In this document: positions 34,161 through 43,874 of the stretch, in pieces | Position numbering within the stretch: position 1 is the first letter of the stretch | Layout: each line of letters starts with the position of its first letter | Assembly: GCA_000004695.1 (NCBI GenBank) | Contig: CM000150.2 | Coordinates: 1,216,001 to 1,280,000, forward strand | Length of the DNA stretch: 64,000 nt | Direction: 5' to 3' | DNA from: Dictyostelium discoideum | Lineage: Eukaryota | Notes under the pieces: generated by a model | What the model was told of the DNA's origin: nothing | Databases searched by the model: none | What the model saw: only the letters and a program-made list of their open reading frames with translations | Position numbers and translations under genes: made by a program

Positions 34161-36599
34161 TTATTCATTATTAATAATTGCTTGATAACCTTGTTGTTTT
34201 TGTTGTCTTAATTTTTTAAAACCAAAAGCAAACATTGAAATACCAGCAATTAAAATGATACCACCAATAATTGAAACAACAATTACAGGTACAAAACCTA
34301 AAATTTTAATTAATTTAAATTGAGAATTAAGTAAATCAATATTTGATTGTGAAGGAGTTGCAGTTTGACCAATTTTTAATATTGGATAAAATACATTTGA
34401 TTTCATATTTTTAAAAGTTGAATTTGAAGAAAACCAATTTGAAAACTCTGGAATTGCTAAATTAATTTGAAGTTTTAAATTATAATATAGAGCATTACCA
34501 GTGATTGGTTCTAAATCCAATGGTACTTGAGCACTTTGATAAGTTTGATTTAAACCTTGTAAATTATTTGAAGAATATTGTGGTGGCACTTCATACATAT
34601 CCCAAAGTGAAACATAAATTGGTAAATTTTGAATATCAGTTAAATTTGCAAAACCAGGTATAGTGGTTTTAAAAGTTGTTGAAATTGGGAAACTGTTATT
34701 CACCAAATAATATCTCTTTGTATCAATACCTTGAACTTGTGAATCACCACTTAATTCCAATTGAACTGGTCTAATTACATTCTCTTCGAATAGAGTCATA
34801 GTTTGAGGTGGATCAGATTGTAATGGTGGGAATTGACCAGACTCTGTGAAACCTTCAACTTGAACAGATCCATTCCAACATGTTAAAAATGTTTGCTCTT
34901 GGAATTCAAAGATTTGATTTGTCATTGATAGATCTTGTTGACCTGTGAAAATGGTGGATGGTTTATTGACAGTGTTATTCTGTTGGAGTGCACATGGTTG
35001 ATCAACACCCAAGTAATCCAATATACCATCTTGACAATTCCATAACCAATCATCCATTGATCTTGTTACAATCAAACCACCATATTTTTCATAAAGTCCA
35101 AGTATAGTTGGTTTATTATATTGTTCATAGAGTTCGGCAGTGGCATAACCAATGATTTTAATAGCATCGAATAATGTTACATTATATTGTTTAAAAGTAT
35201 CAAATGATTTTGAAGCAGTTAAGAAATTAACTAACCCATTTAAATTCAATATTGAATTACTATCAGACTCATTGAATAAACTTTTATAGGCCTGTTGTAC
35301 CGATACACTTAATTTTACATCAATACCAATCGATTGATAAAGCAATGGAATTTCAATTGGACCTTGATCAAATGGTTGTGTTAAAAATGTATAATTTGAA
35401 ATGGATCTACCATTCAAAGCATTACCAGTAACAAATTGACAAACTCCCAACATTGAAATATCTGGTATATCACAAATTTCATTAACATATGATTCTGTAT
35501 AAACTTTTGAAAAATCATTTAACCACCAATTTAAAATCATATCAATTTGATCCACTGTTAATTGCAATTCCGATGTTAATACGGTTATTGAAGTTTTATC
35601 ACCCAATAATGCATTGATCCATAGGGTTGAACCAATCTCTTGATTTAAAATTGAATTTTCATTTGAAGAATTAAATAACAACTTTGCAGATAATATTGAA
35701 ATATTTGATGATTCATTATTATTATTTACTGATGATACCAACATACCATACCAACCATTACCTTTTTGTGGAATTGATGTTGCATTTGCCCATTGTTGGT
35801 AGAAATACTGTTCATCACCATTCAATGATTTTAAAATATTTAAATATTGTTCTTGATAAAGTTTTGGATTTTGTGTGAAATAAACTATATTTGTAAAGTT
35901 ATCACTTGACAAATATTCTAAAAACAATCTCATTTGACCACAACCACTAAGTGCTATTAATAAATTCTCTGCTGGCATATTATCTAATAACTCTGCATTT
36001 GGTGCTAATTGAAACATTAATCCCAAATAAGCTGGATTAATATTTGTAATCATAATTTCATTTGGATCATTTGGTGACATATCTGATTGATAAATAAATG
36101 ATTTACTTTGTGTATAAGTTGCTAAATTACCACCATCTTGAAATGTTACATTACTAAAATTAAATTCATATTTATAATTAAATGGTCCAACCGTTTCAAA
36201 TATTGGTATTGATCCATTTAAAAATTCATTTGGATTTGTCTTTTTTTTTTTTTAAAAATAAAATAAAAAGTTAGAAAAAAAAAAAATAATTAAAATTTTT
36301 TAAAATTAAAAATAAAAGATTAAAAAGTAAGTACTTACTAAATTCCAAGCATAAAAGTATTGTTGATAATAATTTTCAATTGATTGTTGTCCTGCCCAAT
36401 CATTATATCTTTGACTTGATGTGGAGTCTACAATGACAGCTTGTATTACTGCATTTTGTGTTGTTTGATTTATTAGATGTGGTAAAAGTGCAAATGCTAA
36501 AATAAATAATACTGCACCTATAACTGCTAAAAATATACCAGATACTAAACAACCTTTATGGTTCACCATTTTTCTATGGCAACACCCTCTTTTTACCAT
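34161..36599 (-). CDS. CD36/LIMP-2/SCARB-family lysosomal integral membrane protein (Dictyostelium lmp family), paralogue A. Minus join(36339..36599, 34161..36239), about 780 aa.
   Basis: An N-terminal cytoplasmic stub plus TM (GCLVSGIFLAVIGAVLFILAFALL), then CD36 hallmarks: …YFYAWNLTNPNEFLNGSIPIFETVGPFNYKYEF…, …PIYVSLWDMYEVP…, LDLEPITGNALYYNLKLQINL…, and a C-terminal TM plus short tail. The intron is gtaagtacttac…aaag, phase 0. Confidence 0.85.
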
Positions 36600-37446
36600 C
36601 TTTATATTATATATTTAAATATTTTGTTTTGTTTTTTTTTTTTTATATTTATATTTTATCCACCTATTTTTTAATTTTTTATTAATTTTTTTTTTTTTTT
36701 TTATACACAGTGTTGATGTTTATGTGTAATTTTTTTTTTTTTTATTTTTTTTTTTTTTAATTTAAAATCCAAAATAGTCAAATGTAAAAAATAAAAAAAA
36801 AAAAAGAAATGGAATTTTTTTAAAAAAAAAAAAAAAAATAAAAAATAAAAATAAAATAATTTAAAAAAAAAATAAAAATAAAAAAATCCCAAAAAATCCA
36901 AAAAATAAAAATAAAATAAAAAAATCACAAAAAATTTAAAATAAAAATAAAAATAAAAATAAATATTGAAATATAATAAAAAAATATATATTGACCATAA
37001 AAATACAAATATTTCTTAAAAAAAAAAAAAAAAAAATTTAATCCAACCATTTTGGGATAATCAATTTAAAGTTTTATTAAAAAAAAAAACAAAACCGTTT
37101 AATTTCCTATTTTATTAAAAAAAAAAAAAACCATTGCACAAATTTTTGTTGTTTTTTTATTTGAAGTTCAAAATGTGATGAAATGTGTGATTGTCCATCA
37201 AAATAAATAAATAAATAAAAAAAAAAAAAAAAAAAACCGTTTAATTTCCTATTTTATTAAAAAAAAAAAACCATTGAGCAAATTTAATTTCCTTTAATTT
37301 GAATTTCAGAGTTTAAGTGTTTTTTTTTAAAAATATCAAAAAAAAAAAAAAAATCAACGGTTTTTTGGACTCATCAAAATTTTTTTTAATTTTTTTAATT
37401 TTTTTTATTTTAAATTAATTCCTTTAAAAAGAAATATAAAAAAAAA

Positions 37447-37561
37447 ATGAAATTAAATATATTTTATTTATTTGTAATAGTTTTAACATTATCAAATATC
37501 AACAATGTTTTTGGTGATCTTAATCAAGCTGAATGTAAATATTTTATTTTATTTTCCACAC

Positions 37562-37592
<31 letters not shown>

Positions 37593-37637
37593 CCACTTAA
37601 TTTCTGAATTTTTAATATGTATAGTTTTAATTTCTTA

Positions 37638-41146: not shown

Positions 41147-41305
41147 ATTAAATTAAATAATTATTAAATTATTAAAAGTAAAAAATTAAATAATTATTTG
41201 TTTTTTATAAATTTTTTAAAAAAATATATTTTAATTATTATTATTATTATTAATTTTTTTTTTTTTATTAATTTATTAAAATTAATTAATTTAATTTAAT
41301 TTTTA

Positions 41306-43652
41306 TTAATTAATAATATTATAACCATTATATTGATTATTATTATAAAAAGTTTTACGAAAACCATTAATTGCCATTACTAAACCAGCAATTAATAAGA
41401 TACCACCAAAAATTGAAACTACAACTACTGGAGCAATTTTAACAGTTTGAATTTGTTTAAATTGTTGTTTTAATAAATTTATATCATTTGTTGAAGCGGT
41501 TGCAGTTTGACCAATTTTTAAACTTGGATAAAAAATACCAAAACTATTGCTATTGGTTGGACTAAAAATATTTGTCCAATTACCTAATGAAGAGAACCAT
41601 AAACTATTTGCATTTGAAGGAATTTGTAAATTAATTTGAAGTTTTAAATTATAATAGAGTGTATTACCAGTGATTGGTTCTAAATCCAATGGTATTTCAG
41701 CATTTTCATAGGTTTGATTTAATCCATTAATATAGAGTGAACTATATTCTATTGGTACACCATACATATCCCAAAGTGAAACATAAATTGGAACACCATT
41801 AAAAAGACCAGTTAAATTTGCAAAACCATTGATTGAATTATTAAAAACTGGATCAATTGGAAAACTTTGATTTGGTAAATAATATCTTTGAGTTGAAACA
41901 CCCATTACTGATGAAGATGAAGAATGTACCAATGAAAGTGGTCTTAAAATATTCTCTTCAAAAATGGTTAAACTTTGTGGTAGATTATCTTGAACCAATG
42001 GAGCCATTTGACCATTTTCAACGAAACCAGTTACATTTACAGTACCATTCCAAATGGTAAGTGTTGATTGTTCTTGAAATTGTTGATATTGATTAGTTAA
42101 TGATAAATCTTTCTTTCCTGTATAAACAGTTGATGGTTTAAAAATTGTATTATTTTGTTGAAATGAACATTGTTGATCAATACCTAAATAATCTAATAAA
42201 TCATCTTGACAATCCCATAACCATTCATTTGCAGTTCTTGTAACAATTAAACCAGATGTATTATAAAATGATTGAACAGATTTAATTGAATAACCAGTTG
42301 TATTTGGAATATAACTTAAAAAGTAACCAATCATTGTCATTGCATCATTATTTGTTAAATTCCATTTTGTAAAATTATTACTATTTGTTGACATTTGTTC
42401 AAGAAATAAACCTAAACCGTGAATTGTTAATAGGGAATCATCAATACTATCATTAAATAAATTGGATTGAGCTTCATTTGTTGAAATTGTTAAATTTGTA
42501 CCCATTGCAATTGGAATTTCAATTGGTTCTAACCAAGGTAAATTTGTTATATTAAATTGACTAATTGATTTATAACCTAATGGTATTGTTGTTATAAATT
42601 GACAAACACCTAATAGTTCAATTGATTCAATTTCACATTGCTTTAATAATTGGCTCATTGTATATTGATCATTAAATCCTTTTAACCACCAAATCATTAC
42701 CAATGTTAATTGTGCTTGATTAATACCTAATTCTTGTTCAAGTATTTGATATGAATTTGAATTTGGACCATTAAAAACTGCATTTATCCAATAACTAATA
42801 CCATTGGTACTATTTAATAATGAATATTGATTCATTGGATTTAAAATTTCCAATGCCGATTGTAAACTTATACCACTTGGTGAATCTAATCCATAAGATA
42901 TCAACATATTATCCCATAATGAACTATTACCATTGGTTGGAATAATAGTTGAATTTGACCATTGTTCTAAAAAATAAATGGTTGGAGTTGTTGTTAAATT
43001 ATTATTAATTGTTGATAATAATAATTGATATTGTTGATTAAAATATTTTGGACCATTATAAAAATATGCAATCATTGTAAAATTATCACTTGATAAATAT
43101 TCTAAAAATTGTTTAGTTTGTGGTGCTGATGCTAAAGTATATAATAAATCCTCTGCTGTCATACCTAATGTAATTGAATTTTTTGATAGTGTTGATAATA
43201 AACCTAAATAAGCTGGATTAAAATTGGTTGTACTAACTGTAAATGGATTTAATGAATCCTCACCTTCAATCCATTTATATGATTTACTTTGAATATAATT
43301 TATTAAATTGCCATCATCACTAAATGAAACTTTACTATTATTCCATTCATATTTATAATTAAATGGTCCAATCTTTTCAAAATTACAATTTTTACCATTT
43401 AATACTTCATTTGGATTTGTCTATATTTTTAAAATTTATTAATTATTTATTTATTTTTTTTTGAAAAAAAAAAAGTACTTACCAAATTCCAAAGATAATA
43501 ATATTGTTTAAAATAATTATCTACTGATTTTTGTCCTGCCCAATCATTATATCTTTGACTTTTCTAATTTTAATTTAAAAAAAAAAAAAAAAAAAATCAA
43601 ATTAAAAAAAAAGAAAAGAAAATTAGTTTTTTTTGATCTTTTTTGGGTTAAC

Positions 43653-43690
<38 letters not shown>

Positions 43691-43874
43691 AAAATAAATT
43701 TGAAAATAAAAAAAAACTTACAAAAGAATCAACAATTACAGCATCAACTATAGCATTATTTGTTGCAACATTTAAAACTGAAGGTAAAAGTGCAAGTGAT
43801 ATAACAAATAATGCTGCACCAATCACTGATAAAAGTAAACCAGCAATTAATAAACCTTTATTGTTTGCAACCAT
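41306..43874 (-). CDS. CD36/LIMP-2-family lysosomal integral membrane protein, paralogue B. Minus join(43722..43874, 43483..43563, 41306..43420), about 783 aa.
   Basis: It has the same architecture as the gene at 34161..36599: N-terminal TM MVANNKGLLIAGLLLSVIGAALFVISLALL, KSQRYNDWAGQKSVDNYFKQYYYLWNL, TNPNEVLNGKNCNFEKIGPFNYKYEW…, LDLEPITGNTLYYNLKLQINL, and a C-terminal TM. An extra intron (gtaagt…aattag) creates an 81-nt middle exon. Confidence 0.85.

Follow-up and report, generated by a model that had tools for sequence, protein, structure and literature searches.

Two neighbouring genes of Dictyostelium discoideum AX4, which code for related membrane proteins on the same strand, differ by one intron, and the question raised by this locus is whether that intron was gained by one gene or lost by the other, and when. 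Within the window (the whole stretch of 64,000 nucleotides that was analysed), an initial annotation had recognized CD36/LIMP-2 (lmp) paralogues on the minus strand, separated by a plus-strand LRR/EGF surface-type gene, and left gain or loss open. Both paralogues, lmpA and lmpC, are the LIMP-2-like members of the three-gene class B scavenger receptor (CD36) family of D. discoideum, on AX4 chromosome 1. lmpC reportedly goes back to Janssen et al. 2001. DDB_G0267406 is the identifier that we take to be that of lmpA. The three genes are as follows.

34161..36599, minus strand: lmpA (LmpA/DdLIMP, 779 aa), ATG to stop, 2 exons; identity to XP_647472.1/Q9XYS8, Pfam CD36, PMC2148220
37447..41146, plus strand: ComC-family LRR/EGF gene, provisional 7-exon model, 1,013 aa; Pfam LRR_ComC, EGF_2, ComC_SSD
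41306..43874, minus strand: lmpC (LmpC, 782 aa, DDB_G0267440), ATG to stop, 3 exons; identity to XP_647474.1/Q55FQ9, AAK30041.1, Pfam CD36

Once spliced, the first minus-strand gene is AX4 LmpA, identical at 779/779 aa to XP_647472.1/Q9XYS8, and the second is AX4 LmpC, identical at 782/782 aa to XP_647474.1/Q55FQ9 and at 781 of 782 to the independently deposited AAK30041.1. No sequence difference was found against the D. discoideum reference lmpA (DdLIMP; Karakesisoglou et al., 1999, PMC2148220) and lmpC, and public annotation already contains both genes together with their proteins and exon structures. Pfam CD36 (PF01130) matched LmpA with 169 bits and LmpC with 140.5 bits (gathering cut-off 26.5), in each case split into two stretches. 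The assignment to the lmp family was borne out by the exact matches and the Pfam CD36 domain. LmpA and LmpC are 49% identical across 776 aligned residues (E = 0), and the pairwise alignment places all the motifs previously named in both proteins. Hydrophobic stretches at residues ~17-40 and ~735-760, as read from the sequence, and many N-x-S/T sites are also present in both, and a hairpin topology has been predicted for LmpA (PMC2148220). The CD36 domain is common to LmpA/LmpC and to metazoan LIMP-2/SCARB2 and CD36, and a hairpin with N- and C-terminal membrane anchors would be so too; the Dictyostelium proteins differ from the metazoan ones in their length of about 770-780 aa and in the two-stretch Pfam match.

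LmpA and LmpC are regarded as the LIMP-2 counterparts and LmpB as the CD36 counterpart, and phagosome acidification and proteolysis are reduced upon LmpA loss (PMC11552500). The endolysosomal localisation of Lmp proteins and their role in phagosome maturation are taken from the literature only (PMC11552500, PMC5758549); on that literature, LmpA resembles metazoan class B scavenger receptors in its endolysosomal role and its part in phagosome acidification and proteolysis. The "apex" of the LmpA ectodomain has been described as a lineage-specific expansion in a preprint (10.1101/2023.11.13.566873).

The exon-intron structures of the two genes are given below (a slash marks the junction in the protein).

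36599-36339, minus strand: lmpA exon 1, ATG at 36599; spliced translation
36419..36420, minus strand: very probable lost-intron site in lmpA, between codons T60 and S61 (VDST/SSQRY), coding sequence continuous; alignment column 61
36240..36338, minus strand: sole intron of lmpA (intron 2 of the family), 99 nt, phase 0, WNL/TNPNE; GTAAGT..AG, 8% GC
36239-34161, minus strand: lmpA exon 2; spliced translation
43874-43722, minus strand: lmpC exon 1; spliced translation
43564..43721, minus strand: lmpC intron 1, 158 nt, phase 0, VDSF/KSQRY; GTAAGT..TTAG, 10% GC
43483..43563, minus strand: lmpC exon 2, 81 nt, 27 codons, KSQRYNDWAGQKSVDNYFKQYYYLWNL; invariant residues, conserved exon
43421..43482, minus strand: lmpC intron 2, 62 nt, phase 0, WNL/TNPNE, common to lmpA; spliced translation, alignment
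43420-41306, minus strand: lmpC exon 3; spliced translation

The intron positions, phases and one-intron difference first described were reproduced, with two phase-0 introns in lmpC and only the second of them in lmpA. It could be argued that intron 1 or the 81-nt exon of lmpC exists only in the annotation and that the real transcripts of both genes are alike, since skipping of this exon stays in frame and leaves 755 aa. We consider this highly improbable. Reading through intron 1 of lmpC, whose 158 nt would shift the frame, meets a stop at codon 84, just as retention of the single lmpA intron leads to a translation stop shortly after WNL. Moreover, the 27 codons of exon 2 encode ten family-invariant residues (Y56, W59, G61, N67, Y68, Q71, Y72, Y74, W76, and N77) and are contained in the independently deposited AAK30041, and the same exon, with both flanking introns and their splice sites, is found in 10 other genes, making 11 with lmpC. 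For lmpA, where a second splice in the cDNA would have removed the difference, published cDNA and genomic PCR reported a "single 98-bp intron" and 779 aa (1999; PMC2148220).

The donor of the shared intron had been described as self-complementary in both genes. In lmpA the palindrome stands, GTAAGTACTTAC being a perfect 12-nt palindrome, located at 36338-36327 and not at 36331-36340; in lmpC the palindromic part is limited to AAGTACTT. Orthologue donors read GTATGTAC, GTATGTAA, GTAAGTAG, and GTAAGTAA. Since the palindrome is absent from them, it is best read as a coincidence on top of the GTAAGT consensus, and it was rejected as a feature for lack of conservation.

The 4.7 kb between the paralogues was measured as 4,706 bp from the lmpA ATG to the lmpC stop, and is occupied by the plus-strand gene, whose LRR/EGF surface-type character was supported by matches to LRR_ComC (74 bits, cut-off 27), EGF_2 (31.1 bits, cut-off 22.1), and ComC_SSD (96.1 bits, cut-off 24). 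As in Dictyostelium ComC-family proteins, the LRR_ComC, EGF and ComC supersandwich domains follow in the family order. Its start codon lies 847 bp from that of lmpA, the two genes being divergent, and its stop codon lies 159 bp from that of lmpC, with which it is convergent. Its product begins with a signal-like peptide, MKLNIFYLFVIVLTLSNINNVFG, and its C-terminus, ...SSSEEPSSSLKQQSLISFILIIFLISSIILN, ends in a hydrophobic stretch, as judged by sequence inspection; the "GPI-type" label of the initial annotation, drawn from this tail, would make it a putative GPI-anchored protein. Neither the 1,013-aa nor the 1,008-aa splice model had an exact match among deposited proteins, and therefore at least one splice junction of the model may differ from the public annotation. 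The number of ComC-family copies at this position varies between species; the gene lies outside the lmpA/lmpC duplication unit, and the spacer content differs between species. A second ComC-family member occurs at 52854-54701, and no tRNA genes were found in the 64,000-nt window.

The age of the paralogues was addressed by neighbour-joining trees (Kimura correction, bootstrap, 693-734 ungapped columns). An LmpA clade including D. purpureum 147185 received 100% bootstrap and an LmpC clade including D. purpureum 147188 received 99-100%, while the split of Dictyostelium LmpA plus LmpC from all other dictyostelids received 95%. LmpA and LmpC are therefore not the "recent duplicates" that they had been called, since each has its own D. 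purpureum orthologue and they share only 49% identity, and the duplication is older than the D. discoideum/D. purpureum split. As in D. discoideum, lmpC is followed by lmpA on a single strand in D. purpureum, D. citrinum, and D. firmibasis. The pair would trace back to a tandem, head-to-tail duplication that took place in the stem lineage of Dictyostelium sensu stricto (group 4), when D. discoideum and D. purpureum had not yet separated.

Introns were mapped in 16 dictyostelid LmpA/C-type genes; LmpB, the deeper outgroup, was not identified among the homologue search matches. Homologues of groups 1-3 were reached by an exhaustive profile search, whereas word-indexed searches with LmpC or the alignment did not reach them. 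Every orthologue gene model has GT..AG introns and translates to a protein identical to the deposited one; the loci of D. citrinum and D. firmibasis LmpA covered the first ~420 codons only. Uninterrupted CD36-type open reading frames, with no poly(A) tail seen, occur on two JGI contigs (L004 and L007); these may be either transcripts or intronless genomic copies, and they were excluded as splicing evidence.

The comparison of intron positions across species, proposed with the initial annotation, gave the following distribution. All 16 genes have intron 2, in one and the same alignment column and phase, while intron 1, at alignment column 61 and in phase 0, is present in 11/16: the five LmpC orthologues, LmpA of D. 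purpureum (DICPUDRAFT_147185), both genes of P. violaceum, that of T. lacteum, and both of A. subglobosum. The only genes of the 16 that lack intron 1 are that of C. fasciculata and the LmpA genes of D. discoideum, D. citrinum, D. dimigraforme, and D. firmibasis. This distribution shows that lmpA lost the intron once D. purpureum had split off, and that lmpC did not gain it. Furthermore, no gap was observed across VDSx/xSxRY in any aligned sequence, and the absence of indels flanking the site makes the loss precise; intron 1 is present in outgroups and in the sister paralogue, and absent in a nested clade of four LmpA genes of the D. discoideum complex. In this context, lmpA and lmpC are very probably an old tandem pair in which lmpA lost intron 1 precisely after the D. 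purpureum split and lmpC kept it.

If only D. discoideum is considered, neither state can be told to be the older from symmetry, and a 158-nt intron could have been inserted into lmpC after the duplication, with lmpA as the ancestral uninterrupted state. The unusual length of lmpC intron 1 (58-137 nt in the homologues of the 10 other genes), the long poly(A) run inside it, and the lack of intron 1 in the group-1 species C. fasciculata would all agree with such an insertion. However, 11 genes share the column and phase of this intron; they come from groups 2, 3, and 4 as well as the P. violaceum complex and include the D. purpureum LmpA orthologue. Gain would thus take no fewer than four or five separate insertions between the same two codons, versus two losses, and the orthologue gene models that carry the intron reproduce deposited proteins exactly, with GT..AG introns. 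Hence we give gain almost no credence.

Under loss, the ancestral gene would have carried two or more phase-0 introns close to its 5' end, after VDSx and after WNL, and probably a third near codon 440. A third phase-0 intron is in fact found near codon 440 in both D. purpureum paralogues and in one A. subglobosum gene. Apart from being AT-rich, the third introns of the two D. purpureum paralogues are not similar in sequence, so nothing indicates that these paralogues recently underwent gene conversion. In the lmpA lineage, the loss of intron 1 would fall after the D. purpureum split and before the branching of D. firmibasis, leaving the coding sequence intact; C. fasciculata lost intron 1 independently.

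Regarding mechanism, a published catalogue lists 441 precise intron losses for D. discoideum and 202 for D. purpureum, and attributes them to reverse transcription (Ma, Che, Porceddu & Niu, 2015, PMC4683709). In that catalogue, 643/645 losses were precise, short direct repeats were no commoner at lost than at conserved introns, and lost introns lay farther from the 5' end, with adjacent introns tending to go together (PMC4683709). The lmpA loss resembles these cases in that a short AT-rich intron was exactly removed after the D. purpureum split and kept in D. purpureum and deeper dictyostelids, although neither DDB_G0267440 (lmpC) nor DDB_G0267406 (presumably lmpA) is in Table S1 of Ma et al. 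(2015, PMC4683709). In the 30 nt of exon flanking the lost site on each side, GC is 0.38 for lmpA versus 0.30 at the corresponding place in lmpC, in the direction of the lost introns of the catalogue (PMC4683709), for a single case. Unlike the catalogued trends, the intron that went is the 5'-most, 180 nt into a 2,340-nt coding sequence (8%), and its close neighbour, 81 nt downstream, survived. Neither 3' bias nor joint loss of adjacent introns, as expected from reverse transcriptase, is seen in lmpA, one case being too few to exclude the mechanism; the pattern fits the reverse-transcription model poorly.

The most likely mechanism would be gene conversion of the genomic copy by reverse-transcribed spliced mRNA, as favored genome-wide for Dictyostelium. 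Since intron 2 was retained, such a tract would need to be short and to stop within the 81-nt exon. The same loss might instead have arisen by precise genomic deletion through microhomology or end-joining. This route, which we hold to be unlikely though not negligible, would suit a 5'-most intron lost while one 81 nt away was kept, and the distant third intron, apparently lost separately in lmpA, resembles independent single-intron events and not one long cDNA tract. However, genomic deletion rarely achieves a loss exact to the base, nearly all catalogued losses are precise without enrichment of direct repeats at lost introns (PMC4683709), and the ancestral intron sequence is gone, placing any microhomology beyond inspection.

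More tentatively, the LmpA/C lineage may represent a small natural series of repeated independent single-intron losses, a suggestion that we regard as rather doubtful. Intron 1 would then have been lost twice, in lmpA of the D. discoideum complex and in C. fasciculata, and the third intron, if ancestral, at least five times, among them one loss each in the lmpA and the lmpC of the D. discoideum complex. If true, this pattern, with intron 2 retained in all genes only 81 nt from the lost one, would point to conversion tracts that are very short or to a non-cDNA mechanism, along with selective retention of intron 2.

In brief, we found no statement on the polarity or dating of the lmpA-lmpC intron difference in the literature searched, and what is added here is that it very probably reflects loss rather than gain, dated after the split of D. 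purpureum and before that of D. firmibasis. The biology is ordinary and already known, the new detail is small, and the case matters little beyond bookkeeping, being one among hundreds of losses and slightly atypical in that the 5'-most intron was lost and the neighbour 81 nt away was kept. That lmpA and lmpC are old paralogues with separate orthologues is useful to know for comparisons of LmpA and LmpC functions across dictyostelids.

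The two minus-strand genes assigned to the CD36/LIMP-2 family are known, annotated genes, and their anatomy was correctly read in the initial annotation. Both regions were read on the minus strand and spliced according to those models, and a comparison with public proteins gave exact matches to the translations: Lysosome membrane protein 2-A (LmpA; XP_647472.1, Q9XYS8) and 2-C (LmpC; XP_647474.1, Q55FQ9, DDB_G0267440) of Dictyostelium discoideum AX4, from a 4.92-Mb contig. We take DDB_G0267406 to be the lmpA identifier.

Genes of the lmpA-lmpC region (window positions)
34161-36599, minus strand: lmpA, exons 36599-36339 and 36239-34161, spliced to 779 aa
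37447-41146, plus strand: ComC-family gene, provisional 7-exon model of 1,013 aa
41306-43874, minus strand: lmpC, exons 43874-43722, 43563-43483 and 43420-41306, spliced to 782 aa

Since the protein matches are exact and unspliced lmpC runs into a stop at codon 84, both structures are confirmed, being those of the reference annotation. The three introns all lie in phase 0, have GT..AG borders, and contain 8-10% GC. LmpA and LmpC are 49% identical across 776 residues, have in common the motifs listed initially (pairwise alignment), and both exceed the curated threshold of Pfam CD36 by a wide margin. D. discoideum has three class-B scavenger receptor homologues, LmpA, LmpB, and LmpC, of which LmpA and LmpC are treated as corresponding to LIMP-2; when LmpA is lost, acidification and proteolysis in the phagosome are both reduced (PMC5758549; PMC11552500). 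Amoebozoan SR-B proteins form two clades, LmpB-like and LmpA plus LmpC (10.1101/2023.11.13.566873).

The one-intron difference between the paralogues, described initially as intron gain or loss, is real, and we could resolve it as a loss in lmpA. That lmpA is not spliced at the AVIVDS site, a point for which cDNA evidence had been sought, is answered by its cloned cDNA, which includes the 5' end (Karakesisoglou et al., 1999; PMC2148220). Each deposited protein of the relatives was mapped to its own genomic locus by exact spliced alignment, and all intron positions were then placed on one protein alignment of 16 genes.

Intron positions shared among LmpA/C-type genes
Alignment column 88, phase 0: intron after WNL, present in 16/16 genes
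Alignment column 61, phase 0: intron after VDSx (present in lmpC, absent from lmpA), present in 11/16 genes

The VDSx intron is carried by LmpC of D. discoideum, D. citrinum, D. dimigraforme, and D. firmibasis, by both D. purpureum genes, and by both Polysphondylium violaceum, the Tieghemostelium lacteum, and both Acytostelium subglobosum genes. Among the 16 genes, it is absent only from LmpA of the same four species (D. discoideum, D. citrinum, D. dimigraforme, and D. firmibasis) and from the single LmpA/C-type gene of Cavenderia fasciculata (L009 6001-8391), which keeps the WNL intron; no indel was found at the site in the protein alignment. In neighbour-joining trees, the LmpA clade includes D. 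purpureum DICPUDRAFT_147185 (bootstrap 100%) and the LmpC clade DICPUDRAFT_147188 (99-100%); a bootstrap of 95% separates Dictyostelium LmpA plus LmpC from all remaining dictyostelid genes. Because of this distribution and the placement of the D. purpureum genes, the VDSx intron is ancestral, and the lmpA lineage lost it precisely in the interval between the separation of D. purpureum and the branching of D. firmibasis; C. fasciculata lost it independently, in parallel with lmpA. A gain in lmpC is very improbable, as it would require at least four insertions at one codon boundary. In D. discoideum AX4, this lmpC intron (43564-43721) is 158 nt long, and those of the other four LmpC orthologues measure 58-86 nt; the surplus is largely a long unbroken poly(A) run.

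As lmpA and lmpC each have their own D. purpureum orthologue, the duplication is older than the D. purpureum split, and the description of the pair as recent duplicates is not supported. P. violaceum also has a head-to-tail pair of LmpA/C-type genes (L003 7211-12401), 58% identical and 350 bp apart; these cluster with each other in the tree, and not with LmpA or LmpC, so that this tandem duplication was independent. D. purpureum, D. citrinum, D. firmibasis, and D. discoideum have preserved the head-to-tail arrangement in which lmpC precedes lmpA on the same strand, but the spacer has turned over between species (L006 was also among the loci compared).

Content of the lmpC-lmpA spacer
D. purpureum: two unrelated genes
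D. citrinum and D. firmibasis: two tandem ComC-like genes, ~8.6 kb (L001 12713-20333, L005 12721-20335)
D. discoideum: one ComC-like gene, 4.7 kb
D. dimigraforme: lmpC and its upstream neighbour inverted relative to lmpA, no ComC-like gene between

The intervening gene, rightly recognised as LRR/EGF, is more exactly of the ComC family (LRR_ComC, EGF_2, and ComC_SSD matches), starting 847 bp from the lmpA ATG and ending 159 bp from the lmpC stop. Its product begins with a signal-like segment and terminates in a hydrophobic stretch, a tail that makes a GPI-type protein plausible. No deposited protein matches the 1,013-aa model exactly, so the public model may have at least one junction placed differently. 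The C-terminal half is 72% identical to both D. citrinum copies equally, and the N-terminal part 64% to the lmpC-proximal copy vs. 45% to the other, which suggests that one copy may have been lost or fused in D. discoideum. A second ComC-family ORF (52854-54701, plus strand; ComC_SSD, TIG, and EGF domains; ~26% identity to the intervening gene) lies downstream of an ABC-F type ATPase ORF (47019-50447).

At its N-terminus, LmpA carries 9-10 extra residues, M[VA]KR[GM]CCH[RG]K, that have no counterpart in LmpC (window 36570-36599; L005 21201-21230; L001 21069-21098). LmpA of D. firmibasis and D. dimigraforme conserves this extension and must start at the first ATG in both species, since residue 11 is K; in D. 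citrinum, the annotated start is preceded by in-frame sequence that codes for it. Hence, the 767-769-aa LmpA models of newer strain annotations look N-terminally truncated. The paired cysteines of the extension, beside the membrane anchor, may be comparable to those near the N-terminus of mammalian CD36, which are palmitoylated. Downstream of lmpA (28589-33587) lie a dual-specificity phosphatase-like ORF, a DnaJ-X ORF, and two ORFs without a Pfam match; DnaJ and phosphatase-like neighbours are found there in D. dimigraforme too. The ORF that converges on lmpA (32931-33587) is probably the 0.6-kb opposite-strand ORF reported beside lmpA in 1999.

The self-complementary donor context noted at the WNL intron is a true 12-nt palindrome in lmpA (GTAAGTACTTAC, 36338-36327), with only AAGTACTT palindromic in lmpC. 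Orthologous donors differ (GTATGTAC, GTATGTAA, GTAAGTAG, GTAAGTAA), so the palindrome is not conserved, and we attribute it to chance superimposed on the GTAAGT consensus.

While the intron loss in lmpA is a fact of the comparison, its mechanism is one that we infer. A catalogue of precise intron losses lists 441 for D. discoideum vs. 202 for D. purpureum, and its authors favor conversion by reverse-transcribed mRNA (Ma et al., 2015; PMC4683709). This genome-wide evidence points toward cDNA-mediated conversion of lmpA, whose tract would need to end within a small exon, since the loss affected the 5'-most intron and spared the next one, 81 nt downstream; the case fits the conversion model only loosely. 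Exonic GC within ±30 nt of the lost-intron site is 0.38 in lmpA vs. 0.30 at the same place in lmpC, the direction reported for lost introns by Ma et al. (2015). Removal of intron 1 from lmpA by precise genomic deletion is the rival mechanism, and we consider it unlikely. Neither DDB_G0267440 nor DDB_G0267406 is in Table S1 of that study (PMC4683709).

A third phase-0 intron, near codon 440, occupies the same alignment position in the LmpC-type and LmpA-type paralogues of D. purpureum (L002 11496-11565 and 19252-19331), and no similarity was found on comparing the two intron sequences. One A. subglobosum gene has a comparable phase-0 intron (L010 7703-7771) at an equivalent place, one column off across a gap. 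If the third intron is ancestral, it would have been lost separately in D. discoideum lmpA and in lmpC. In brief, the lmpA/lmpC difference is an ordinary precise intron loss between old paralogues, mildly unusual only in the 5' position of the lost intron and in possible repeated independent losses within the LmpA/C gene lineage.
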